From positions 90,843-154,842 of the forward strand of contig CAWAMW010000012.1 of assembly GCA_963783305.1 (NCBI GenBank): a stretch of DNA of 64,000 bases, written 5' to 3'. Shown piece by piece: positions 50,531-64,000 of this stretch. Made by a program: the position numbers and the translations under genes. Source of the DNA: an uncultured Gemmatimonadales bacterium (GTDB lineage: Bacteria > Gemmatimonadota > Gemmatimonadetes > Longimicrobiales > RSA9). Below the pieces are notes generated by a model, which saw only the letters and a list, made by a program, of their open reading frames with translations, ran no database searches and was not told the origin of the DNA. The number at the start of each line of letters is the position of its first letter. Position 1 is the stretch's first letter.

Positions 50531-51028
50531 AGAGACGTGACACGAAGGGCTCGAATGGGCGAAGGGCACGAAAGAGCTCCACCGGCTCACCCGTCGCGGA
50601 GGACCCGTCGCCAGCCGCCATTTACCAGGGCATCCACGTTGAAATTGAAGAGCAGACCTACCCGCAGATCGGACATGCGCAGGTACGAGAGCAGCTGGGA
50701 AACGTGCACGGGAGCGATCTTCTGCACGACCTTCAGCTCTACCACCACCTTCTTTTCGACCAGAAGATCCACTCGGTACCCGCAGTCGAGGTCCACGTCC
50801 AGATACCGGACGCGGACCGGCACCTGCCGGCTCACCCTGTGGCCGCGCCGGCGCAGCTCGGCATCGAAACACGCTTCATACGTGCTCTCGAGCATGCCCG
50901 GCCCGAGATACCGATGCACTTCGATGGCCCCACCGATGATGCTTCGGGTGAGCCCGCCCGTCCCGTCGTTCACGAAATCAGTCACTTCGCGCCCCTTCGT
51001 CCCTTCGTGCTCTTCGTGTCACGCCTCT
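50531..51028. mobile_element. Putative inverted-repeat-bounded GxxExxY element 1
   Basis: AGAGACGTGACACGAAG... left arm and ...CTTCGTGTCACGCCTCT right arm enclose a single gene; mobility is inferred. Confidence 0.6.
50587..50985 (-). CDS. GxxExxY protein (PD-(D/E)XK nuclease-like)
   Basis: LGPGMLESTY, YRVDLLVE..VVVELK, QLLSYL, GLLFNF. Confidence 0.93.
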   Translation of the reverse strand: MTDFVNDGTGGLTRSIIGGAIEVHRYLGPGMLESTYEACFDAELRRRGHRVSRQVPVRVRYLDVDLDCGYRVDLLVEKKVVVELKVVQKIAPVHVSQLLSYLRMSDLRVGLLFNFNVDALVNGGWRRVLRDG

Positions 51029-51183
51029 GGGAACGTGAACCGGGGCGTGGGGCGCTGGAATGGCAGAATGGGACGTTTCCCGATTGCGAACCGCGTCGCC
51101 GTACATCATTATCCCTCCGGCCGGTCGCTCTCCCAACCTCCTTGGACACCCGCGCGACCCGCCGTTGGGCCAACGTGCGCCCC

Positions 51184-52287
51184 ATGACCACATCCGAAGG
51201 CCGCCCTGTGCGCATCTCGAAAAGCCAACGCTGGCTCGACCTCATCGCCTTCCTGGTGCGACACCGCTTCCCGGTGGACGTGGACCAGGTGATGAACGGC
51301 GTGCCGGCCTACCGCGAGAAGTGGAACAGCGGCTCCGCGAAGGACAAGGCCACCGTCCAGAAGATGTTCGAGCGCGACAAGTCGGAGCTTCGCGACGCCG
51401 GCATCCCGCTGGAGACCCGCGAGTACACCATCGACCACGGCGCCGAGCTGGCCATCGGCTACGAGCTCTCCGGCCGCGACTTCTACCTCCCGTACCTGCG
51501 GATCGTGCGCGGAGAATCGTCGGGCGTTCCCGGCCTTTCCCAGCCGATGGACCTCGACACCGACGACTTCCAGACCGCCGTCGATGGCTTGCGCCGCGTA
51601 CGTGATCTCCCCGGCAGCCCCCTGGCGCAGGAAGCCCGGACCGCCCTGTCCAAGCTGACCTTCGACGCCGACCCCGCCGCGATCCGCGACGACCCCGTGG
51701 TCTACGCCGACTCCCCGGAGGCCGGCGAGGTCCGGGAGCTCACCCGCGTCCTCCGGGACGCCCTGTCCGCCCGCCGCCGAGTGCGCTTCACCTACCACGG
51801 CATCCACCGCGACACCGCCACCGACCGCGATGTCGCGCCGTACGGCCTCCTCTTCCAGCGCGCCCACTGGTACCTGATCGGCAGCGACGCCACCCGCGAG
51901 GGCGACCTCCGCGTGTTCCGCGTCAGTCGCATCGAGACCGGCACGCTGAAGCCCGGCGACCCCGACAGCTACCGGATCCCCGACACCTTCGACGCGTCGG
52001 AGTACGCCGCGCGGGAGGCGTGGGAGCTGGGCGAGGACGACCCCGTCGTCACCGATGTGCGGTTCGCGTTCCCGCTGTCGCTCTGGGCCGACCGGAACGG
52101 GCAGGGGACCGCCGTGGAGGAGGCGCACGGTGGCGCCGTCGTGCGCCGGTTCGACGTGCGCCAGACCGACCCGTTCCTCCGCTGGCTCCAGTCGTTCGCC
52201 GGCGACGCCGTCGTGGTCGCGCCGCCGGAGCTCCGAGAGGCGCAAAAGGAGCTGGCGAGGCGGACTCTGGAGGTGTATGGAGCCTGA
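51184..52287 (+). CDS. HTH-WYL-WCX regulator, PafB-like
   Basis: QRWLDL, KMFERDK.ELR..GIP, V.PYGL....HWYLIG, RVFRVSRI. Confidence 0.88.
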   Translation: MTTSEGRPVRISKSQRWLDLIAFLVRHRFPVDVDQVMNGVPAYREKWNSGSAKDKATVQKMFERDKSELRDAGIPLETREYTIDHGAELAIGYELSGRDFYLPYLRIVRGESSGVPGLSQPMDLDTDDFQTAVDGLRRVRDLPGSPLAQEARTALSKLTFDADPAAIRDDPVVYADSPEAGEVRELTRVLRDALSARRRVRFTYHGIHRDTATDRDVAPYGLLFQRAHWYLIGSDATREGDLRVFRVSRIETGTLKPGDPDSYRIPDTFDASEYAAREAWELGEDDPVVTDVRFAFPLSLWADRNGQGTAVEEAHGGAVVRRFDVRQTDPFLRWLQSFAGDAVVVAPPELREAQKELARRTLEVYGA

Positions 52288-52288
52288 G

Positions 52289-52520
52289 CTAGGTCGTGCG
52301 GATGTGCTGATCCACGAACTGACGGGGGGACAGGATTCGTATTCCCTCCCGGCTCTCGAGGGTAAGGAGGTCGTCATCCCCCGTGATAACGACATCCGCC
52401 CCGCCGGTCAGCGCGCAGGCGAGAACCTTGTCGTCGTCCGGATCCCGGGACACCGGTTCCGGCAGAGCCGGCGCGTCGATCAGCTCGGCTGCCGCGGCGA
52501 TGAAGGCGAGCAGACCGTTC
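52289..52520 (-). pseudogene. C-terminal remnant of a PIN-domain toxin
   Basis: SRDPDDDKVLACA..GGAD..ITGD.DLL.L....GIRILSP..F; the N-terminal DTNV motif is absent. Confidence 0.75.
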
Positions 52521-52613
52521 CCCTCGCCGGTTCGCGCTGCGCATTCGAGGTCGCTGCGGGCTGCTCCGCGTCCGCCTTCGGCCCAACACTGGCCGCCGAA
52601 GCGGGGTCGTGCT

Positions 52614-53633
52614 ATGCCTGACACCGCCCTGGACCAGGTCGAGCGACTCCTCCAGCTCATCCCCCTGGCCGCCCGCGATGGCGGGATCCGCTACGTCGAG
52701 CTTGCCGACGCCCTCGCCATCGACCGCGCGCAGCTCGACCGCGACCTCGAGACGCTGACGACCCGGGACTTCTACCTCCCCGGCGGCGCCATCAACGACC
52801 TCCAGGTCACGCTCGAGGAGGACCGCGTACGCGTGTGGACGACGGGTCAGCTCAAGCGCCCACCCCGGCTCACGGCCGGCGAGGCGGCGGCGCTGGACCT
52901 GGGGCTGAGGCTGCTGAAGGCGGATCACGGTTCACAGTGCACAGATCACGGTTCACAGTGCACAGATCACGGGGCGTCCGCGGCGGACGACGGTTCAGCG
53001 ATCTCCGACCTGCTTCGTCGCGTGAGTCGGTCCATTCCTGCGTGTACGGGACAGGTCATCGCGGATGGGGACCCGGACGCGGGGGACGCGGTGCGGGCGC
53101 TGGTGGAGGACGCGGCGCGGCGGGGGCGGAAGGTCGCGCTGTCGTACCTCAAGGCGGGCGCCCGGGAGCCAGGGGCGCGCACGGTGGCGCCGTACGTGGT
53201 GGCGCGGGCGGAGGGGCGGAGCTACGTGCTGGGGCTCGATGACGCGTCGGGGGAGGTCCGGGCGTTCCGGCTGGACCGGGTCCTGGAGGCACGCATCACC
53301 GACGACGACTTCACCGTCCCCGACAATTTCGACCCCGCCGACTGGCTCGATGGCGGCCGCGTATACCGCGCCGATGACGCGCTGGAGGTCACCGTCCGCT
53401 ACAGCCCGCGCGTCGCCCGCTGGATCATGGAGAGCGGGGAAGGCGAGGTGGCGGAGGACGGGAGCGTGGTGGTGACGCACACGGTGGCGGACCCGGGGTG
53501 GATCGTGCGACACGTGCTGCGTTACGGGGCGGACGCGGAGGTGGTGGCGCCGACGGAGGTGCGGGGGTGGGTGATGGCGGCGCTGGAAGCTGCAGCGGAG
53601 AGCGGGTCCACTTTCACTGCGGAGAGCCGCTGA
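52614..53633 (+). CDS. HTH-WYL-WCX regulator, PafC-like
   Basis: RLLQLIP, QLDRDLE, RPPRLT.GEA.AL, RTVAPY, RAFRLDRV, LRYGADAEV..P. Confidence 0.88.
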   Translation: MPDTALDQVERLLQLIPLAARDGGIRYVELADALAIDRAQLDRDLETLTTRDFYLPGGAINDLQVTLEEDRVRVWTTGQLKRPPRLTAGEAAALDLGLRLLKADHGSQCTDHGSQCTDHGASAADDGSAISDLLRRVSRSIPACTGQVIADGDPDAGDAVRALVEDAARRGRKVALSYLKAGAREPGARTVAPYVVARAEGRSYVLGLDDASGEVRAFRLDRVLEARITDDDFTVPDNFDPADWLDGGRVYRADDALEVTVRYSPRVARWIMESGEGEVAEDGSVVVTHTVADPGWIVRHVLRYGADAEVVAPTEVRGWVMAALEAAAESGSTFTAESR

Positions 53634-53640
53634 TCGTGCG

Positions 53641-54198
53641 TTACGCCACCAGCCGCCGCTCGATGCCGCCCACGCGCTCATTCAGGACGCGGAACCGCTG
53701 GCGCATGTCACTGGAGAGCTCGTCCAGCCGCCCGTGGACACCGGCGAGATTCTCTTCCACGGCCTGGAGCCGCTGGTCCATTCCCTTCAGCCGAGCGTTC
53801 AAACCGTCGATTCGACCGTCGACCTCGCCGATCCGACCGTCCATGGCATCCAGCCGGTTCATGACCCGCGTCTCGAACTGCTCCATCCGCAGCTCCATCG
53901 TTCGGAACCGGGCATCGACGGACTGGAAACCCTCTGCGGACCGGATTTCGAGCGCGTCCATGCGCTGCTCGAGTGCGTCCATGCGCTGCTCGAGTGCGTC
54001 CATGCGCTGCTCGAGTGCGTCCATTCGCTGCTCGATGGCGTCCAGCCGCTGCTCGATGGCGCCCAGCCGTTGCTCGACAGCACCCAACCGTTCCTCAACG
54101 CCGTCGAACCGCTTCTCCATGCGGCTGAACCCGGCGTGCATGGCGGTCAGCACTTCGGCGAGAACGCCGTCCATGTATTCCTTCGTCTCCGCATCCAT
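53641..54198 (-). CDS. Coiled-coil heptad-repeat protein
   Basis: LEQRMDA-type heptads encoded by 21-bp tandem repeats (about 53950-54080). Confidence 0.75.
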   Translation of the reverse strand: MDAETKEYMDGVLAEVLTAMHAGFSRMEKRFDGVEERLGAVEQRLGAIEQRLDAIEQRMDALEQRMDALEQRMDALEQRMDALEIRSAEGFQSVDARFRTMELRMEQFETRVMNRLDAMDGRIGEVDGRIDGLNARLKGMDQRLQAVEENLAGVHGRLDELSSDMRQRFRVLNERVGGIERRLVA

Positions 54199-54313
54199 GC
54201 CCCAAGATAGCCTCGCCTCGCGTGGCGTTGCCATAGCGGAATGGGACCTCTGGATTCCGGGGTCGACTGGCTTCGCGGTGCGCGTCTGCGTTCCGGGCGG
54301 GAGCAACCGCCAC

Positions 54314-54840
54314 AAAGGCTTGTCACGAAGGGCTCGAAGGGGCGAAGGTCTCGAAGAACAGCACTCAGCTTGCCAGCAGGATTCGTTTGAAGCCGCCGGC
54401 TACGAGGGCTTCTACGTTGAAATTGAAGAGCAGGCCGACCCGCAGATCCGAGAGGCGCAGGTAGGTCATGAGCTGGGAAACGTGCACGGGAGCCAGCCTG
54501 TCTACGGCCTTCAGCTCCACCACCACCGACTCTTCAACGAGCATGTCCAGCCGGTAGCCGCAATCGAGCCGCACGTCCCGATGGATCACCGGCAGCGGCA
54601 CCTGGCACCGGACGCTCAGCCCCCGGTGCCGCAGCTCAGCCTCGAGACAAACCTCATAGGTCTTTTCAAGGAGCCCCGGCCCAAACTTCCGATGGATGTC
54701 GATGGCCGCGCCAATGATGGTTCTGGTAATTCCTCCAGTCCCGTCATCCCGCAGGTCACCGCGCATGCCCCCTCACGCTGTTACTCCAATTGTGGTTCTT
54801 CGAGACCTTCGCCCCTTCGAGCCCTTCGTGTCACGCCTTT
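54314..54840. mobile_element. Putative inverted-repeat-bounded GxxExxY element 2
   Basis: 46-bp terminal inverted repeats at 54314-54359 and 54795-54840 with 2 mismatches; mobility is inferred. Confidence 0.65.
54365..54766 (-). CDS. GxxExxY protein (PD-(D/E)XK nuclease-like)
   Basis: FGPGLLEKTY, YRLDMLVE..VVVELK, QLMTYL, GLLFNF. Confidence 0.93.
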   Translation of the reverse strand: MRGDLRDDGTGGITRTIIGAAIDIHRKFGPGLLEKTYEVCLEAELRHRGLSVRCQVPLPVIHRDVRLDCGYRLDMLVEESVVVELKAVDRLAPVHVSQLMTYLRLSDLRVGLLFNFNVEALVAGGFKRILLAS

Positions 54841-54900
54841 AGAAGTTTGCTGCAAAGACGAAGGCCGAAAATGCCCCGATGAGCCCGAGGCATGCGCGTA

Positions 54901-57900
54901 ATGGCCTCCTTCCCGCACGGCCTCTACGAATCCCTCGTCACCGAGGCCCTCGCCACCCGTCTCGAGGCGCTCCCGCGGAACCGCCAGGCAAGCACCGACG
55001 CCCTCCGCACCGCCGAGGCCGCCGACCGCATCGCCTGGCACATCGCGTCCGTGGTCGAGCGCGCCATCGAGATGCTCCCGGAATCCCAGCGGACCGAAGC
55101 CGGGATAGCCCTGGCGAGGTCGCTCGTGGACAGGGTCGTGGAGGGATCGAGCGTCGCCGAGCTGAGCGACCAGCGGCCGAGCGACCCCGCCGAGGTACTC
55201 CGCGGCGTGCACCGCCTCCGCCCGGACGGCACGCCCGCGCAGGTCGAAGGCCCGCTCATCCCGCTCCTGGACTCCGCGCTCCTCACCAACGCCCCCGGCG
55301 AGCCCGCCGTGGGCCACCAGGTCGCCGCGGAGATCGCGTCGGCCGACCGGATCGACCTGATCATGGCGTTCATCCGCCGCTCCGGGATCCGGCCGCTGCG
55401 GGAGAAGCTGCGGAAGCACGTGGACGACGGCGGCACGCTCCGGGTCCTGACTACTACGTACACCGGCTCCACCGAGCGCGCCGCGCTGGACTGGCTCCGG
55501 GAGCTCGGCGCCGACGTCCGGGTCTCCTACGACACCACCAGCACGCGCCTCCACGCCAAGGCCTGGCTCTTCCACCGCGACTCCGGCTTCTCCACCGCCT
55601 ACGTCGGCTCGTCCAACCTCACCCACTGGGCCCAGGCGACGGGCCTCGAGTGGAACGTCCGGATCTCCGGCGCCCGCAACCGGTCCATCGTCGAGAAGGT
55701 GGCCGCGGTCTTCGAGAGCTACTGGGAGGAGGCCGACTTCGAGCCATACGACCCCGCGCGCTTCGCCGACGCCGTCGACCTCGACCGGCCGCCCGGCGAC
55801 CGCGTCATCCTCCCGCCCACCGAGATCCGACCGTACCCGTTCCAGGAGCGGCTGCTGGAGCAGATCGCGCTGGCCCGGGAGCGCGGGCACCACCGGAACC
55901 TGCTGGTGGCCGCCACCGGGACGGGGAAGACCGTCATGGCCGCGCTGGACTACCAGCGGCTGCGGAAGGAGCTGCGGGACAAGGGCGAGCGGGCGCGGCT
56001 GCTCTTCGTCGCCCACCGGGAGGAGATCCTGACCCAGAGCCGGGCCACGTTCGCCCACGCGCTCCGGGACGCGAATTTCGGCGAGGAGTGGGTCGGGGGC
56101 CGGAAGCCGGCGGAGTTCGACCACGTGTTCGCGTCCATCCAGTCGCTCGACCGGAACGGCGTGGACCTCATTGCGCCAGACCACTTCGACGTCGTGATCG
56201 TCGATGAATTCCACCATGCCGCCGCGAAGTCGTACGACCGGCTGCTGAAGCACCTCGAGCCCCGCCAGCTGCTCGGCCTGACCGCCACACCGGAACGGAG
56301 CGATGGCGCGCCGATCCTCCACTGGTTCGACGACCGGATCGCCGCCGAGCTCCGGCTCTGGGACGCCATCGACCAGCACCGCCTCACCCCCTTCGCCTAC
56401 TACGGCATCGCCGACGACCTGGACCTCCGGGAGGTGCCGTTCACGCGGGGCAGGGGATACGACGTCGACGGCGTCACCAACATCATCACCGCGAACGACG
56501 TCTGGGCGAACCGGGTCCTCAAGCAGTTCCTCGAGCACTTCGGCAACCCGCCCGACGTCAGAGCCCTCGGCTTCTGCGTGGGCGTCGACCACGCCCGCTA
56601 CATGGCCCGCGTCTTCAACCAGCACGGCGTCCCCGCCGTCGCCATCACCGGCGAGACGAACGACGACGAGCGGAAGCGCGCGCTCCGGGACCTGGAGCGG
56701 GGCGGCGTCAACGTCGTCTTCAGCGTGGACCTCTTCAACGAGGGCGTGGACGTCCCCACCGCCGACGCGCTCCTCATGCTCCGCCCCACCGAGAGCCCGC
56801 TCCTCTTCCTCCAGCAGCTCGGCCGCGGGCTCCGGAAGGCGCCGGGCAAGGCCGTCTGCACCGTCCTCGACTTCGTCGGCCACCACCGCAAGGAGTTCCG
56901 CTACGACCGCCGCTTCCGCGCCCTCCTCGGCGGCACCCGCACCGACGTCATCCGACAGGTCGAGCAGGGCTTCCCGTTCCTCCCCGCCGGCTGCCACATG
57001 GAGCTGGACCGGGTGTCGTCCCAGCGGGTCCTGGACAGCATCCGGAACGCGCTCCCGGACAACGTCACGCAGCGGGCGGACGAGCTGAGGGAGCTGGTCG
57101 CGAGACAGGGCGACGTCACGCTCGCCCAGTACCTGGACGCCACCGGCCTCGACGTCGACGAGGTCTACCGCGGCAACACAACGGCTGGTCGGATCTCCGG
57201 GAGCGGGCCGGCCTGGACACCGCCCCCGCCGGCGACCACGAGACGATCCTACGCCGCGCCATCGGCCGCCTGCTCCACGTAGACGACCCCGAGCGGCTCG
57301 CGACCTGGCGTCGCTGGCTCCAGGGCGACACACCGCCCGACGTGGGCGTCTCCGAGCGCGACGACCGTCTCCTCCGCATGCTCCTCGGCCAGCTCCTGGA
57401 CCAGGTCGCCGGCAAGGACATGAGCCTGGCCGACGGCGCGGCCGTGCTCTGGGCCCACCCCCAGGTCCGTCGCGAGCTGGACGAGCTGTTCGAGGTCCTG
57501 GAAGCCGGGTGAGCCACCTCACGCCCGACCTCGGGATCCTGCCCGACGTCCCGCTCCACGTCCACGCCCGCTACACCCGCATCGAGATCCTCGCCGCGTG
57601 CGGCAAAGGCGAGGGGGCGAGGGTGATGCCGTGGCAGACCGGCGTCCTCTACGTCGAGGAGCTCCCCGCCGACCTCCTCGCCTTCACCCTGGACAAGACC
57701 GGCGGCGCGTTCTCCCCCACGACCCGGTACCGCGACTACGCCATCAGCCGCGACCTCATCCACTGGGAGAGCCAGTCGGTCACCCGGGCGGACAGCGAGA
57801 CGGGGCGACGGTACCAGGAGCACGCCAGGCGAGGCAGCCACGTCCTGCTGTTCGCGCGGCTGAACACCGACGAGCGGGCGTTCCACTTCCTCGGCCCGGC

Positions 57901-58006
57901 GACGTACGTCCGGCACGAGTCGGAGCAGCCGATGGCGATTACGTGGAAGCTGGAGTATCGGCTGCCGGGGGATCTGTATCAGGCGTTTGCGGCGGCGGTG
58001 GCGTGA
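54901..58006 (+). CDS. PLD nuclease-SF2 helicase-DUF3427 protein (SauUSI-like type IV restriction enzyme), frameshifts near 57176 and 57505
   Basis: LHAKAW...VGSSNLT (PLD), ATGTGKT, DEFHH, TATPER.D, QQLGRGLR, and FSPTTRYRDYAIS..LIHWESQS (DUF3427); the middle segment reads ...GWSDLRERAG...HPQVRREL in another frame. Confidence 0.88.
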
Positions 58007-58153
58007 TGGGCAAGAGTGTGATAGATGCCACGCCCTCCAAGTACCGTGAGGCCTCTTCACTGCGTTGCACAGGCTCTTGCCGAGAGTCTAGGTGGAAGGG
58101 ACACAAAGTACGGATGGCTTTAATCCTATTCACCACAGCCATTTCACAATAGC

Positions 58154-59086
58154 GTGATCACTTCGAAACAGCTTGAGACATACGTCCAGGGGGCTATTGC
58201 GCAGTTCGCAGTCGAGCCCTCCCGAACTGTCGTCGGAGTGTCAGGCGGCAAGGACAGCACCGCTTTGCTGTGGGCGCTGAGGTCCCTTCGTTTGCCCGTG
58301 ATTCCGGCAATTGTTGATTTGGGGTATCCGCATTTCGACGCCGACGGAATAGCAGCTCAACTGAAAGAGGCTGGATTTGACCCCGTAGTCCTCACGGCAG
58401 AGCCATACCCGGATTCCTTAGTGAAGTTGACGCGCCATGAAGCGAGCACAGTCATCGATAACCTGAATGCGTTGAACAAGCTCGCTGAGAAGGAAGTTCC
58501 CTGCGGGCGCTGTACTCGTGTGAAGAGGTCGCTGTTGCTAGGACTGGCACGTGCTGAGAAGGCTAGGTTCGTCGCGCTTGGGCATCATCTCACTGATTTT
58601 GTAACCACGATTCTTAAGGACTATTTCGTTGATACCTACGCTTCTAGCATTGGACGGTATGACCCTGCCACATTCCGATTGCACGTTGACAATCACCCAA
58701 TTGATGTTGACCGGCTCAAGGGGTTGGTGGTAGGGGAACGGGCGGCGACGATGGCGTTTCGTCTGCCTCTGGATAGGGAAGTCGAGTTGGTGCGGCCGCT
58801 CTTTCAGGTGCCCGAGAACGAAATTGAAGCTTGGATTGAGGGAAGTGGGCTGCTAACATTCGGGGCTGGCTGCAGCCATTCAGTCTTCAGTGCTGGATCT
58901 GGGCTGATGACCAAGCGGGAGTTAGTCCACGTGCGGGTAAGAGCAGAGGCTTCCAAAGATCCGGATTTCTACAGCAGCATAATGCCGGTACTTCTCAGGA
59001 CGTTGACCGACGAGGGATTGCCACGGTTCTCATCACCTCGTGGACGCCGCGCTGAAATCTATCCCCGCTTCGACGGGGCGGACTAG
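58154..59086 (+). CDS. PP-loop ATPase, TtcA/TtuA-like
   Basis: VGVSGGKDS, PCGRC...KR, ALGHH.TD, VRPL..V.E.EI. Confidence 0.82.
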   Translation: MITSKQLETYVQGAIAQFAVEPSRTVVGVSGGKDSTALLWALRSLRLPVIPAIVDLGYPHFDADGIAAQLKEAGFDPVVLTAEPYPDSLVKLTRHEASTVIDNLNALNKLAEKEVPCGRCTRVKRSLLLGLARAEKARFVALGHHLTDFVTTILKDYFVDTYASSIGRYDPATFRLHVDNHPIDVDRLKGLVVGERAATMAFRLPLDREVELVRPLFQVPENEIEAWIEGSGLLTFGAGCSHSVFSAGSGLMTKRELVHVRVRAEASKDPDFYSSIMPVLLRTLTDEGLPRFSSPRGRRAEIYPRFDGAD

Positions 59087-60354
59087 TGCAGACGCCGCCG
59101 CTCGTGGTCATCGCCGGTCCGATGGGTGTTGGGAAGACCACCCTCGCTCGGAACTTGGCGGCACACCTTGGTTGGCGATACTTACCAGAGAGCGTTATCG
59201 CTGCACCGCTCATTGAGCAGCTGTTTAGGGATCCCGATCGGTGGGCGTTTGCTGTTCAAGTTACCTTTCTTGTTGACAAGGCGCTGCAGCTAAAAGCTGC
59301 AATGGAAATCGGAGATCCGATTATCCTCGACCGTGGCCTAGTCGAGGATGCAAGAATATTTGCCCGCTATTGGGCAGATGAGGGATATATTGAAGAGAGC
59401 TTGTTCGAGGTATACGAAGCTTTGGCCAAGCACTTCATCGAAGATCTGCCTCCACCGGACCTGACTATCTACTGCGCGTGTTCATTCGAAGAATCCCTGC
59501 GCCGGGACCAGAGGAGAAACAAGCCCTACGGCCGGTCCCACGCGCAGGCGATTTTCGATCGCTACCGCGACTGGGTGGAAAGATATTCTGGACCGACATT
59601 GGCGATGCTTGATACCGAGGATGTCAATGTGCGGAAGTCGACGCAAATCAGGGAAGTTGCCTCGGAAATACTGAGTAGCTTTCTATCACCTTCGGAAGGT
59701 GTGGTTCAGTCAGATCTGTTCTCCCAGCCGCAGCCTTCAAAATCGTCTCCCCCTTTGCTAAGCCCGATTACAACGGGGCGGCTGAGTCACAGAGCAGTCA
59801 GAGTGAAGTATGGAGGGCGCGTGATACCGTTCCCTTCGGCGTATATCGCCGCCCCGTTCACGGCCCAAGCGACAATATCACCGCCGAGCGAAGACGCGTA
59901 TCGGCTAATGCTCGATACGACCCCTCACGGGATTCTCCCACCGGGCCGGTATCGCAGCTTCGTTGAGAGCATTGAACAGGCTGCACGCTCATATGGCCTG
60001 AATACCTTCTTACCCCATCGGGACGTGAACGCCTGGGGGGGAAAAGTGTTGCCTCCAGCCGAGATCGCTTCCCTCTGCTCTCAATATGTGAAAGAAGCGG
60101 ATCTGTTTATCGGCGTGCTGGGAATGAGCCAAGGGTCGCATTATGAATTTGGCCTGGCTAGAGCATTTGGAAAGCCTGCACTTCTGATTGAAGTGGCTGA
60201 ACTGCCGACGTCGTATATAGCACAAGGTCTATCGACACTGTCTAAGTCTTTGTTGAGGGTTCACGTGGAAAGCTTCGAGGAGGTGCGAGGAGCACTCACC
60301 CAGCCCCGGGTGGAGAATTTTCTGAGAAGGTACTTCCCGATCAGGAGGAAATAG
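59086..60354 (+). CDS. Deoxynucleoside kinase fused to a nucleoside 2-deoxyribosyltransferase / MilB-BlsM-like N-glycosidase domain
   Basis: N: GPMGVGKTT, PE, RWAF..Q..FL, LDR, PDL.IY; C: YIAAPF, FLPHRD..AWG, EADLFI, SQGSHYEFGLA...GKP. Confidence 0.82.
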   Translation: MQTPPLVVIAGPMGVGKTTLARNLAAHLGWRYLPESVIAAPLIEQLFRDPDRWAFAVQVTFLVDKALQLKAAMEIGDPIILDRGLVEDARIFARYWADEGYIEESLFEVYEALAKHFIEDLPPPDLTIYCACSFEESLRRDQRRNKPYGRSHAQAIFDRYRDWVERYSGPTLAMLDTEDVNVRKSTQIREVASEILSSFLSPSEGVVQSDLFSQPQPSKSSPPLLSPITTGRLSHRAVRVKYGGRVIPFPSAYIAAPFTAQATISPPSEDAYRLMLDTTPHGILPPGRYRSFVESIEQAARSYGLNTFLPHRDVNAWGGKVLPPAEIASLCSQYVKEADLFIGVLGMSQGSHYEFGLARAFGKPALLIEVAELPTSYIAQGLSTLSKSLLRVHVESFEEVRGALTQPRVENFLRRYFPIRRK

Positions 60355-60356
60355 TG

Positions 60357-61277
60357 ATGACTCGTCTGGTCGCCTGGTACGATAGCCGCAGCTTAGGAGT
60401 CCGGACCTTTTTGGCTTCCCTGGCCGCGGGAGTCGCGTTCTACGGGTCCGCTCTGTTAACGGTGGGCATTTCGGAAACGGTCGGCGAACAGGCGCCCGGC
60501 GGCAGTACGGCTGTACATGCGACGGTCTTCATAATTCTTATGACCACTGGCATTTTTGCCGCCCGCTATTTCCTTACAGTTCAGCATAGACTCAGGGAGG
60601 AAAGAGACGCGAAGACTGCCTTCCAGCTACACGCCTATGCCCATGTGGACCGGCTCGTGGCGAAGCAGGTTGATTGGGCCGGTAGTAGGGAGGATGTGCT
60701 AAAGGCATGGGGACTTGGCCCTCGCGTCTTTCAAGAGATAGTCCAAAGAGCCTACGAGACGTTTGAAGCAGGATACGGAAAGGCCTCCGAAGCTGCTGAA
60801 AGGGTCGACTTCGAAGTCACGTTTATGACCAAGTCCTACCGCGATGGCAGGATAACTATTCCCGCCTACGCAAACAGGGATGGCAGGGCACCGAGGAGTA
60901 TGGTCTTGCGAGCGGAGCAGCCCGACATCTACGACAACACAGTGACGGCTCGCATTTACCGAGAGCAGAGGCCTAGTCCCCACATCGTTGAAGATACTGA
61001 CGCGAAAGCTGCCGATTATCAGGAACTGTATCCACAACAGAAGAAGCGGATCCGGTCGTCGATTGTCTATCCAGTGCTCTCACATTAGAATACGCTGCTC
61101 GGAACCCTCGTTGTTCATTGTGATAGGAGTGGCTTTTTCAAAGAGAGTGATCAGAAGTACTGGTTTGAGGTGTTTGAGGTTTTCGCAAAGCGACTCGCAC
61201 TCGCGAAGCAGAGGCTTGACCTGGCGGTTGAACATGAGGGCGGTGGTCTGCCGGCTCACGTCGAGGAGCCGTTCTAG
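60357..61277 (+). CDS. 2TM plus GAF-like domain protein, interrupted by an in-frame TAG at 61086-61088
   Basis: Two N-terminal hydrophobic helices; IRSSIVYPVLSH*NTLLGTLVVHCDRSGFF continues in frame to TAG 61277. Confidence 0.7.
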
Positions 61278-61279
61278 TC

Positions 61280-63317
61280 ATGAACCACTCACAAATTACC
61301 GCCTTCATCTGGTCGGTCGCCGACCTGATCCGCGACACCTTCAAGCGCGGCAAGTACCAGGACGTCATCCTCCCGCTGACCGTCCTCCGGCGCATCGACC
61401 AGGTCCTGGCGCCCACGAAGGAGAAGGTCCTCGGGACCTACAGCGAGTTCAAAGGCAAGCTCGACAACCCGGACGACCTCCTCCGGAAGGCCTCCGGCTA
61501 CGCCTTCTACAACACGTCGCTCTACACCTTCGAGCGGCTGGTGGACGACCCGCAGAACATCGCCCACAACCTCCGCACCTACATCCAGTCGTTCAGCCCG
61601 AACATGCGGGAGGTGATCGAGAAGTTCGACTTCGACAACACGATCACAAAGCTCGACGACGCCGGGCTCCTCTTCCTGGTCATGGAGCAGTTCGACCAGG
61701 TCGACCTGCACCCGGACCGGGTCTCGAACCCCATGATGGGGACGATCTTCGAGGAGCTGATCCGTAAGTTCAACGAGGCGCTGAACGAGAACCCCGGCGA
61801 GCACTTCACGCCCCGCGACGTCGTCCACCTCATGGTCCGGCTGCTGGTGGCAGGCGAGGACGAGAAGCTGGGCGGGAGCGGCCCATCGTCACTGTCTACG
61901 ATCCGTGCTGCGGCACGGGCGGCATGCTGACCATCACGAAGGACGTGATCCAGGGGTCGCCGAAACGGAGGGGCTCAACCCCAACGCCGACGTCCACCTC
62001 TTCGGCCAGGAGGTGAACCCCGAGACGTTCGCCATCTGCAAGGCCGACCTCTACATGAAGGGCGACGGCTCCGACGCCGACAACATCGCCTTCGGCAGCA
62101 CCCTCGCCGTCGACCGCCACGCCGGCCGCGGTTCGACTACATGATCGCCAACCCGCCTTACGGCAAGGACTGGAAGCGGGACGAGGACGCCGTGGAGGCC
62201 GAGGCCGAGCGCGGCACCGCCGGCCGGTTCGGAGCCGGCACGCCCCGGATCAGCGACGGGCAGCTCCTCTTCCTCCAGCACATGGTCCCCCACATGAAGC
62301 CGCCGGAGGACGGCGGCTCCCGCATCGCCATCATCATGAACGGCTCGCCCCTCTTCACCGGCGACGCCGGCAGCGGCGAGAGCGAGATCCGCCGCTGGAT
62401 CCTCGAGAACGACTGGCTCGAAGCCATCATCGCGCTCCCCGAGCAGCTCTTCTACAACACCGGCATCGCCACCTACGTCTGGGTCCTGACCAACCGGAAG
62501 CCGGCCGAGCGACGCGGCAAGGTCCAGCTCATCGACGCGACCGCCTTCTGGGCGCCATGCGGAAGAGCCTCGGCGACAAGCGCCGCGAGATCACCGAGAG
62601 CACCGGGAGGGGATCCTCGACCTGTACCGCGCTTACGAGGAGGAGGCGAGCGGAGCAAGGTCTTTCCGACCGAGCACTTCGGCTACCGGAAGATCCGCGT
62701 CGAGCGGCCGCTCCGGCTCAACTTCCAGGCGTCCGCGAGCGGATCGCTCGTCTCGACGACGAGCGCGCGTTCCAGAACCTCGCCAAGAGCCGGAAGAGGG
62801 ACCCGGAGAAGAAGCGGGAGGAGGCCGAGGAGGGGCGGAAGAGCAGGAGGAGATCCGCGACTGCTCCGCGCCTGCCCGACACGCTCTTCACGGACCGGGA
62901 GGAGTTCCTGAAGGCGCTGAAGACGGCCGCGAAGGAGGCGGACGTGAAGCTCACGGCGCCGCTCCGGAAGGCGATCGTCGGCGCTCTCCGAGCGCGACGA
63001 GAACGCCGAGATCTGCCGGGACAAGAAGGGCAACCCCGAGCCCGACCCCGAACTCCGCGACTACGAGAACGTGCCGCTGGACGAGGACGTCGAGCGCCTA
63101 CTTCGCGCGCGAGGTGATGCCCTACGTCCCCGACGCCTGGATCGACGAGTCGTACACCGACGCCAAAGACGGCGAGGTCGGCCGCGTCGGCTACGAGATC
63201 AACTTCAACCGGTACTTCTACGTCTACGAGCCGCCCCGGCCGCTCGAGGAGATCGAAGCGGACATCCGGGAGATCGAAAAGGAGATCGTCGGGATGCTTG
63301 GGGAGGTGGGGGTGTGA
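61280..63317 (+). CDS. hsdM: Type I restriction-modification methyltransferase subunit (multiple frameshifts)
   Basis: FIWSVADL.R, ILP.TVLRR.D, GEHFTPRDV, DPCCGTGGML, ANPPYG, GYEINFNRYFY, spread across several frames. Confidence 0.92.
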
Positions 63318-64000
63318 AGTCTGCTGATAATGGCTGGCGCGAGCTAAGGCTCAAACATTCCGTTCGGAGCAACCCGACGAAGGCGGAAGTCAAAGGCCTT
63401 CCGAAAGACCTGGCCGTGTCTTTTGTCCCCATGGAGGCAGTGGGCGAGTACGGTGGGCTCGATCTGACGCAGGAGAGGCCGTTAGGCGAGATATCCAGCG
63501 GGTACACGTACTTTCGAGATGGCGATGTCGTGGTCGCGAAGATCACGCCGTGCTTCGAGAACGGAAAAGGGGCACTCGCCAAGGGCCTGCGATCGGGCAT
63601 CGGCTTCGGCACAACCGAGCTCCACGTGCTGAGGCCCCAAGAGGTGGACGCGCGATTTCTGTTCTATCTGACTATCAGCGACAGGTTTCGGAAGCTGGGA
63701 GAGGCCTCCATGTACGGCGCCGGAGGACAGAAACGCGTTTCCGAAGAATTTGTGGAGGAGTACCGAGCCGCTTTCCCGCCGCTCGATGTCCAAAAGTCCA
63801 TCGCCTCCTTCCTCGACCGCGAAACCACCCGGATCGACACCCTCATCGAGAACAAGCGGCGCCTCCTCGATCTGCTGGAGGAGAAGCGCGAGAGTAGGAC
63901 CGCAGCGATCGTGGAGGGACGGAGTGATTACCCGCTCGTCAAGCTGGGCCACTTAATCGGGGTGTTGTCGGGATTCGCCTTTCCTAGTTCTGGGTTCACA
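63314..64000 (+). CDS. hsdS: Type I restriction-modification specificity subunit (3' partial; absent from the ORF track)
   Basis: GTG overlaps the hsdM stop; YTYFRDGDVVVAKITPCFENGKG, GAGGQKRV, PPLDVQKSIASFLDRETTRIDTLI; open to the window end. Confidence 0.92.
   Translation, partial: MKSADNGWRELRLKHSVRSNPTKAEVKGLPKDLAVSFVPMEAVGEYGGLDLTQERPLGEISSGYTYFRDGDVVVAKITPCFENGKGALAKGLRSGIGFGTTELHVLRPQEVDARFLFYLTISDRFRKLGEASMYGAGGQKRVSEEFVEEYRAAFPPLDVQKSIASFLDRETTRIDTLIENKRRLLDLLEEKRESRTAAIVEGRSDYPLVKLGHLIGVLSGFAFPSSGFT

Follow-up and report, generated by a model that had tools for sequence, protein, structure and literature searches.

A mobile pair of genes, a dNK–N-glycosidase fusion and a membrane GAF protein, as a candidate anti-phage alarm

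What do three short, overlapping and comparatively AT-rich genes do between two restriction loci of an uncultured Gemmatimonadales bacterium? They lie in a stretch of 64,000 nucleotides (contig CAWAMW010000012.1 of assembly GCA_963783305.1; hereafter the window), and an initial annotation had read them as an undescribed three-gene nucleotide-signalling defence system, made of a TtcA-like PP-loop enzyme, a fusion of a deoxynucleoside kinase (dNK) with an N-glycosidase, and a GAF protein with two transmembrane helices (2TM-GAF). We find that the conserved unit is two genes, the fusion enzyme and the GAF protein, and that together with an optional third gene they apparently form a rare, horizontally spread and undescribed cassette. 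Its reading as a two-gene anti-phage system, in which a signal-making enzyme acts through a membrane effector and an optional accessory modifies a base, has in our estimate a probability of about 0.5, while anti-phage defence in one form or another is likely. The cassette and its parts are as follows.

58154..59086, plus strand: TtcA/TtuA-like PP-loop protein (PF01171), 310 amino acids (aa), optional accessory gene
58241..58258, plus strand: PP-loop SGGKDS of that protein, aa 30-35, invariant in 13/13 aligned sequences
58502..58873, plus strand: Cys117, Cys120 and Cys240 of that protein, invariant, aligning with the CxxC and distal Cys of TtuA
59086..60354, plus strand: dNK-like domain fused to a MilB/BlsM-type N-glycosidase, 422 aa, core gene
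59098..59685, plus strand: dNK-like domain, aa 5-200 (PF01712, E 8.5e-30)
59707..59721, plus strand: QSDLF, aa 208-212, a beta-clamp-binding-type motif in the flexible linker
59833..60330, plus strand: N-glycosidase domain, aa 250-415 (MilB-type match, E 3.6e-17)
60357..61277, plus strand: 2TM–coiled helix–GAF protein, 306 codons, core gene; the frame opens at 60354/60357
60408..60581, plus strand: two hydrophobic helices, aa 18-36 and 57-75 (Kyte-Doolittle scan)

The proposed co-occurrence of these genes is borne out for the two core members. Among GTDB loci found with the GAF profile, the fusion gene is adjacent in 28/30, and the other 2 begin at a contig end; conversely, a GAF gene accompanies the fusion gene in 70 of 76 non-redundant loci (after clustering at 85% identity), 61 times in tandem and 9 times convergently, and in 45/51 of the fusion-gene loci that were not found through GAF. 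Of the six loci lacking it, four end within 131 nt, and L065 has a near-copy, L038, that carries the GAF gene. L103/L104, L106 and L109 were rejected as matches to the glycosidase part only, L103 and L106 being kept in the count of 76 as misses. Distances between the partners are correlated (Mantel r 0.59, n=58, for fusion versus GAF; r 0.69, n=21, for TtcA-like versus fusion), with the reservation that kin are not independent in either test. The tail-to-tail loci are L016, L020, L058, L064, L067, L076, L090, L092 and L095; two of them, L016 and L092, have conjugation (TrbI) genes next to them.

A three-gene core, as first proposed, is not what we observe. The TtcA-like gene is an optional accessory of the two-gene core, present in 25/52 loci and absent from 27/52, counted over loci that either extend 1.3 kb upstream or show the gene, a denominator that favours presence. 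Because so many loci do without it, the signal cannot always be a thiolated pyrimidine. Other accessories are a NUDIX gene in four loci (L022, L026, L079 and L093), a second dNK in four and MazG in one, and no fixed further partner recurs among the neighbours.

The glycosidase domain of the fusion protein offers the clearest indication of a substrate. Its best solved relatives are the CMP N-glycosidases MilB (E 3.6e-17), BcmB and BlsM, with Rcl/DNPH1 and the nucleoside deoxyribosyltransferases (NDTs) at E 0.004 or worse, and its fold superposes on MilB with Z 16.9 and a root-mean-square deviation (rmsd) of 3.2 over 151 aligned residues. It shares with these enzymes the NDT fold, the catalytic Glu, the phosphate-binding Ser/Gly and the equivalent of Phe22: Phe258, Ser348, Gly350 and Glu354 correspond to MilB Phe22, Ser97, Gly99 and catalytic Glu103. 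Unlike them, it is fused to a dNK, has no antibiotic cluster around it and carries Tyr253 for Phe17, Thr259 for Arg23, Asn315 for Glu62 and Cys331 for Asp78, so that the MilB motif F-L-[GA]-[GA]-P-F-[RK] here reads Y-I-A-A-P-F-T. Tyr253 and Glu354 occur in 71/71 homologues, Ser348 and Gly350 are invariant, the Arg23 position holds Thr or Ser, and Asn315 and Cys331 are found in 70/71 and 62/71, respectively; the nine homologues without Cys331 form a single Bacillota clade, none having the TtcA-like gene. According to the accessible text of the MilB study, F17Y switches the substrate of MilB from CMP to dCMP, and Arg23 selects hydroxymethyl-CMP (PMC4081090). Tyr at the Phe17 position thus predicts a deoxy, dCMP-type substrate, and Thr or Ser for Arg23 an enzyme that would not be hydroxymethyl-specific. 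We regard a deoxynucleoside monophosphate as a well-supported prediction from these residues. The base may possibly be an unusual one, since replacement of Glu62 by Asn and of Asp78 by Cys suggests that the substrate is perhaps not cytosine-based.

The initial annotation had named the other half of the fusion protein a dNK, a label that stands for the fold and less well for the catalysis. Structure comparison places the domain in the deoxyadenosine/deoxyguanosine kinase class (Giardia deoxyadenosine kinase, Z 22.2, rmsd 4.2, 212 aligned), the AbmG kinase of a nucleoside-antibiotic pathway being among its closest solved relatives. The P-loop, Gln58, Lys65 and DRxxxED are near-invariant, and the features of an active kinase that we found comprise the P-loop, the Gln, DR..D and the lid arginines. 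However, the Glu35 of this copy, which aligns with the Glu of solved deoxyadenosine kinases and which we take to be the catalytic one, lies in a column that keeps Glu in only 28/66 non-redundant homologues. Because this residue is lost in most homologues, the domain is probably a nucleotide-binding sensor rather than an enzyme in many members. Where the fused domain is without the Glu, four loci have a second, stand-alone dNK within three genes, which keeps the residue in 4/4; three of these four are related Bacillota. In ten loci, none with a TtcA-like gene, the fusion protein bears an N-terminal extension of about 90 aa, which in P0129 contains a helix-turn-helix.

Between the two domains runs a variable linker modelled with low confidence (predicted local distance difference test, pLDDT, of 60-73 over the block), in which a single motif is fixed, with the family consensus QLxLF. 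Qxx[LM]F occurs in 56/66 homologues, versus a mean of 1.3 and a maximum of 5 in 500 shuffles, and the canonical clamp form Q-phi-x-[L/M]-[F/L] in 46/66, versus a mean of 2.4 and a maximum of 9 in as many shuffles; QSDLF of the present copy, with Ser at position 2, matches only the looser form. QL[S/D]LF is the beta-clamp consensus in the accessible part of the work that defines the motif (PMC11139829), and phage Mu, according to the portion of a preprint available to us, employs a clamp-type motif as well (10.1101/2025.01.04.631326). The motif would let the fusion enzyme dock on the beta sliding clamp of the host.

The second core protein has the layout of a membrane effector. Its GAF domain matches PF01590 with 27.1 bits (cut-off 22.4) and compares with a known GAF fold at Z 15.0 (rmsd 2.6, 157 aligned). 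The relatives are about 310 aa long, and an intact homologue, P0002, is modelled (pLDDT 93.8) as two helices, a long helix and a GAF domain. Two hydrophobic segments are present in 98/108 homologues, and the C-terminal residue is Phe, Tyr or Trp in 101/108, the frame of the present copy including the conserved terminal Pro-Phe. A GAF-only profile matched 241 cluster representatives; among the best 150 of these 241, nearly all full-length relatives measure 280-365 aa. The exception is P0400, of 398 aa, in which TIR_2 (31.9 bits, cut-off 28) replaces the membrane helices on what is the same GAF domain as that of the cassette (hhalign 99.9%). Such an exchange of output on one GAF fits a signal receptor, as the initial annotation had cast the protein; among the matches listed, 2TM or TIR are its outputs, with no other signalling output domain. 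Clusters of TIR-GAF look-alikes in the ESM Atlas serve as leads only. In L036:322-6746 the genes run TtcA-like, fusion, TPR-TIR, fusion, 2TM-GAF, the middle protein (534 aa, a weak TPR match and a CAP12-type TIR) standing between two dNK-glycosidase copies and having no GAF domain. The TtcA-like gene is immediately preceded by a DUF2513-TIR (SpbK-like) gene in two related loci, L009:6972-7604 and L048:1098-1850.

As for the accessory, the PP-loop protein (PF01171, E 6.6e-8) has TtuA as its top PDB sequence match (E 7.7e-24) and shares with the tRNA thiolases TtcA and TtuA the SGGKDS PP-loop, the CxxC with its distal Cys, and a GHH..D motif. The counterparts of Cys117, Cys120 and Cys240 in TtuA are presumably its 4Fe-4S ligands. 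Unlike those thiolases, the protein is tied to the cassette, scores 66.3 bits against an NCBIfam TtcA equivalog cut-off of 272, has an insertion of about 35 aa in the alignment and falls, in a tree of 47 rows, into a dedicated 30-row clade (support 100/99) apart from housekeeping TtcA. In L057, L060, L069 and L077 the same core genes are preceded by a TtcA-like gene of another lineage, separate from the first (support 100/100). That two distinct lineages adjoin one core argues for a functional link. Members of the second lineage have SGGADS, where visible, and two CxxC, and L092 has an ordinary-looking TtcA beside its core genes.

Read together, these features would fit the following course of events. 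The fusion enzyme would dock through QLxLF on the beta sliding clamp of the host, where its dNK-like domain, still phosphorylating perhaps in some members, would mainly bind a deoxynucleoside or deoxynucleoside triphosphate (dNTP) and so gate activity. The MilB-type domain would cleave a deoxynucleoside monophosphate, with dCMP or a modified form of it as the likeliest substrate, and the freed base or deoxyribose phosphate would bind the GAF domain of the partner. Binding would then switch the two-helix membrane effector so that the infected cell is arrested or killed, either through activation by the product or through a Panoptes-like release once a constitutive product vanishes. Where present, the TtcA-like enzyme would alter the chemistry of the signal, probably by 2-thiolation of the cytosine ring. 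We hold the order from enzyme to GAF to be evenly balanced against its alternatives. A bolder version, which we offer only tentatively, has a clamp-riding N-glycosidase release the second messenger, either a free base (cytosine or 2-thiocytosine) or deoxyribose phosphate, from a deoxynucleoside monophosphate. A pseudokinase would read the dNTP pool, the GAF domain would be the receptor of the immune pathway, and an Fe-S tRNA thiolase put to a new use would rewrite the signal. Such a system would watch over the replisome and respond to a phage that seizes or obstructs the clamp or alters the dCTP pool.

Does the cassette belong to a system that already has a name? The initial annotation had recognised none, and this holds in PADLOC and NCBIfam, where the three proteins matched no named system. 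Our full-text literature searches found no description of the gene combination, although subscription papers and preprint supplements may list the pair, and no account of an immune receptor based on GAF, a signal made by an N-glycosidase or a defence enzyme tethered to the clamp. No CD-NTase, cyclase, TIR signal generator, cNMP-binding, SAVED, STING, macro or S2TM-beta domain was detected in the cassette proteins. For CD-NTase and pyrimidine cyclase in particular there is no match in PADLOC, NCBIfam or Pfam, each protein having a different confident fold; for Thoeris and Panoptes (a TIR or mCpol/DAC enzyme; a SLOG, macro or S2TM-beta receptor) there is no PADLOC match, and the receptor fold here is GAF. 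Pycsar, CBASS and Thoeris pair a signal enzyme with a sensor-bearing effector. The cassette resembles these systems, Thoeris type II and Panoptes-Panoptoo in that a putative signal-making enzyme adjoins a putative transmembrane effector with a small-ligand sensor (2TM-GAF in 98/108) and in the TIR-for-transmembrane swap on one sensor (one TIR-GAF fusion), and differs in having a GAF receptor and an N-glycosidase as the enzyme. To our knowledge, CBASS, Pycsar, Thoeris, Kongming and Panoptes signal with cyclic nucleotides, ADP-ribose derivatives or intact triphosphates, and their receptors are other than GAF. QueC is, like the TtcA-like protein, a member of the PP-loop superfamily. Panoptoo, as far as the available part of its description goes, is restrained by a constitutive signal (10.64898/2026.08.10.743927). 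Kongming, in the accessible text, combines the deaminase KomA, the HAM1-like sensor KomB and the SIR2 protein KomC around a dITP signal (PMC13454610). By that account, it shares with the cassette a conserved two-part core with a variable base-modifying enzyme and probably a housekeeping nucleotide enzyme turned non-catalytic sensor; its base-modified deoxynucleotide chemistry may also have a counterpart here, as the TtcA-like accessory and the altered active site suggest. The cassette, unlike Kongming, lacks HAM1, SIR2 and deaminase and has a dNK, a MilB-type glycosidase, a GAF domain, two transmembrane helices, a TtcA-like enzyme and a clamp motif; KomB- and KomC-type proteins do not recur among its neighbours either. 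Reuse of such an enzyme has a parallel in the accessible account of type IV CBASS (Cap9 QueC, Cap10 TGT), in which a tRNA-modification enzyme serves as a defence accessory (PMC13434031); the cassette enzyme is of another family, and there is no CD-NTase. The cassette is not mentioned in the parts of PMC13329287 and PMC13434031 available to us, nor in the main text and one supplement of PMC13069673.

We next consider where the cassette sits, the remaining features of the locus being these.

58030..61279, no strand: low-G+C insert (about 55%) containing the cassette
54892..58006, plus strand: flanking type IV (SauUSI-like) restriction gene, frameshifted in the assembly (PADLOC mREase_IV, E 2.8e-194)
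61280..64000, plus strand: flanking type I hsdM, with many 1-nt deletions, followed by the first part of hsdS where the contig stops
61086..61088, plus strand: in-frame TAG, codon 244 of 306 in the GAF gene

The three plus-strand frames, their overlaps (TAGTG at 59084-59088; TAGTGATG at 60352-60359) and the start of hsdM at 61280, 2 nt past the TAG of the third gene (which ends at 61277), are all as first described, and so are the domain calls (PF01171, PF01712, PF01590 and the MilB-type N-glycosidase) and the type IV endonuclease and type I methyltransferase flanks. The insert is indeed AT-richer, with 55.1% G+C at 58154-61277 against 71.3% in the upstream restriction gene and 66.5% in hsdM (locally, 28/60 at 58621-58680 versus 40/60 at 56701-56760). 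A scan for promoters and terminators returned matches at chance level only. The window ends where the contig ends, and the flanks look damaged: relative to genome G005 of the same genus, hsdM (61280-63200) lacks 1-2 nt at about nine places, some of these deletions being shared with other relatives, and the type IV restriction gene has two frameshifting indels, whereas 0/16 housekeeping genes elsewhere are broken. This looks like read error close to the contig end. The cassette, unlike both restriction-gene flanks, has no frameshift. The TAG in its GAF gene, where an 87%-identical metagenomic homologue has Gln, truncates the protein before the final GAF strand, with loss of the C-terminal helix and the closing Phe as well, and may be a real mutation or a read error. 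The last 10 kb of the contig are apparently poorly polished, which bears on other findings in that part.

Farther upstream, a PafB/PafC-like WYL-WCX regulator pair (window 50704-53633) precedes the restriction island; the two regulators are separated by a PIN-domain gene that runs on the other strand. Two similar short genes (50587-50985 and 54365-54766, minus strand) flank this region, each with what we take to be a GxxExxY-type motif, and a heptad-repeat coiled-coil protein, DUF7310-like, is encoded at 53641-54315 on the minus strand. G005 seems to retain a remnant of a WYL-region-type gene after its restriction endonuclease.

That the cassette is a mobile, low-G+C element is supported well beyond this genome, its G+C lying below that of the flanks in 41/43 loci (median -8 points). 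It occurs in Acidobacteriota, Nitrospirota, Verrucomicrobiota, Planctomycetota, Pseudomonadota, Bacillota, Myxococcota and other phyla, and it was found in 0/72 other genomes of the same family (many incomplete, three unpublished), while 400 genomes of the phylum gave only two weak partial GAF matches. Relatives of the glycosidase were not found in phage genomes, nor GAF-family relatives in the viral contigs or plasmids searched; two weak viral glycosidase matches were set aside, and the plasmid matches proved to be plain dNKs. A swappable slot in the defence island is supported by G005, where a remnant and then another low-G+C gene, a SIR2-kinase fusion, stand after the orthologous type IV endonuclease gene; the contig that carries hsdM in G005 ends 69 nt upstream of it. 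The slot is not general in the family, as G314 and G453 have housekeeping genes upstream of hsdM. The G005 protein (L123:3059-5410, G005:C308), which follows the endonuclease directly and joins a SIR2-like domain to a Ser/Thr kinase in 783 aa, is itself a candidate single-gene defence system.

A defence-island setting, also proposed at the outset, is found in part of the family. We examined 269 open reading frames (ORFs), at most 3 per side, from 64 loci, all scanned with Pfam and a hand-picked 111/269 also with PADLOC. By manual reading, a restriction, abortive-infection, TIR or named-system gene lies within 3 genes in 16/64 loci, and a defence-type neighbour in 26/64 once toxin–antitoxin and candidate genes are added. 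Counting any PADLOC hit gives 28/64 loci (40 proteins) versus 5/20 control regions (6/101 proteins), the control being the single genome G000 and its matches mostly generic domains. Enrichment is thus moderate, not overwhelming. None of the three outcomes that the initial annotation had named as telling against it was seen, namely separation of the homologues, a home in tRNA-modification or nucleoside-antibiotic clusters in place of defence islands, or a match to a described system.

Several observations weigh against the signalling system proposed here. The TtcA-like gene is missing from just over half of the loci (27/52), the base-binding Glu62 and Asp78 of MilB are changed to Asn and Cys, the TIR-GAF fusion is a single sequence without genomic context, and the GAF gene is interrupted in this genome; moreover, 38/64 loci, many among housekeeping genes, have no defence-type neighbour, and the PADLOC contrast with the control regions is modest. 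The main rival, which we consider unlikely, reverses the roles: the clamp-tethered fusion enzyme would be a toxin destroying dCMP or another nucleotide at forks, akin to retron NDT effectors or dCTP depletion, and the 2TM-GAF protein a membrane sensor or antitoxin that holds it until a phage trigger, perhaps docking via its C-terminal Phe. Retron Ec86 has an NDT-like domain for its effector, according to the accessible part of that report (10.1101/2023.08.16.553469), the aromatic end of the GAF protein (101/108) resembles a docking peptide, the pair is kept even tail-to-tail (9 loci), and a degenerate kinase fused to an enzyme looks like a self-contained sensor-effector. However, the same GAF fused to TIR suits an effector carrier better than an antitoxin, and the TAG, if real, would leave an intact toxin without its antitoxin in this genome.

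Two further alternatives dispense with phage altogether. The cassette could be a mobile sanitising or stress module that removes damaged or analogue deoxycytidine nucleotides (nucleoside antibiotics, for example) at the fork, its membrane GAF protein reporting or exporting the product. We judge this less likely still, even though nucleoside-antibiotic pathways supply the closest solved relatives (MilB, BcmB and BlsM, and the AbmG kinase) with DNPH1/Rcl more distant, the occasional accessories (NUDIX, second dNK, MazG) are pool-cleaning enzymes and the 38/64 loci without defence neighbours are in its favour: among the matches listed, 2TM and TIR are the sole signalling outputs of the GAF protein, and the cassette is extremely patchy, low in G+C and housed in a slot shared with the SIR2-kinase gene. 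A small biosynthetic cluster, yielding a modified (thio)cytosine product or a tRNA or DNA modification with the TtcA-like gene as stand-in tRNA thiolase, seems to us quite improbable. MilB, BlsM and BcmB do release cytosine for antibiotic synthesis, by the accessible text of PMC4081090, and G000 shows no canonical TtcA and, besides the cassette gene, one weak PP-loop match (E 1.3e-5). Yet the TtcA-like gene is optional (25/52), with its own clade and insertion setting it apart from the housekeeping enzyme, no thymidylate-synthase or radical-SAM family appears among the listed Pfam hits of the 269 neighbour ORFs, and no fixed partner beyond the cassette genes recurs.

We return to the two-gene signalling system. 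The pairing, the mobility, the slot, the lack of a named match and a TIR swap fitting a receptor support the initial reading of the locus in part, while the three-gene core and a thiolated pyrimidine as the signal throughout need correction. Most likely, the cassette represents a new kind of bacterial anti-virus alarm. With two or three small genes and named residues to work on, the ideas of a GAF receptor, an N-glycosidase-made signal and clamp tethering can each be put to the test; if the reading is true, the cassette would also provide a natural N-glycosidase of dCMP type and possibly a pyrimidine thiolase that acts on small molecules.

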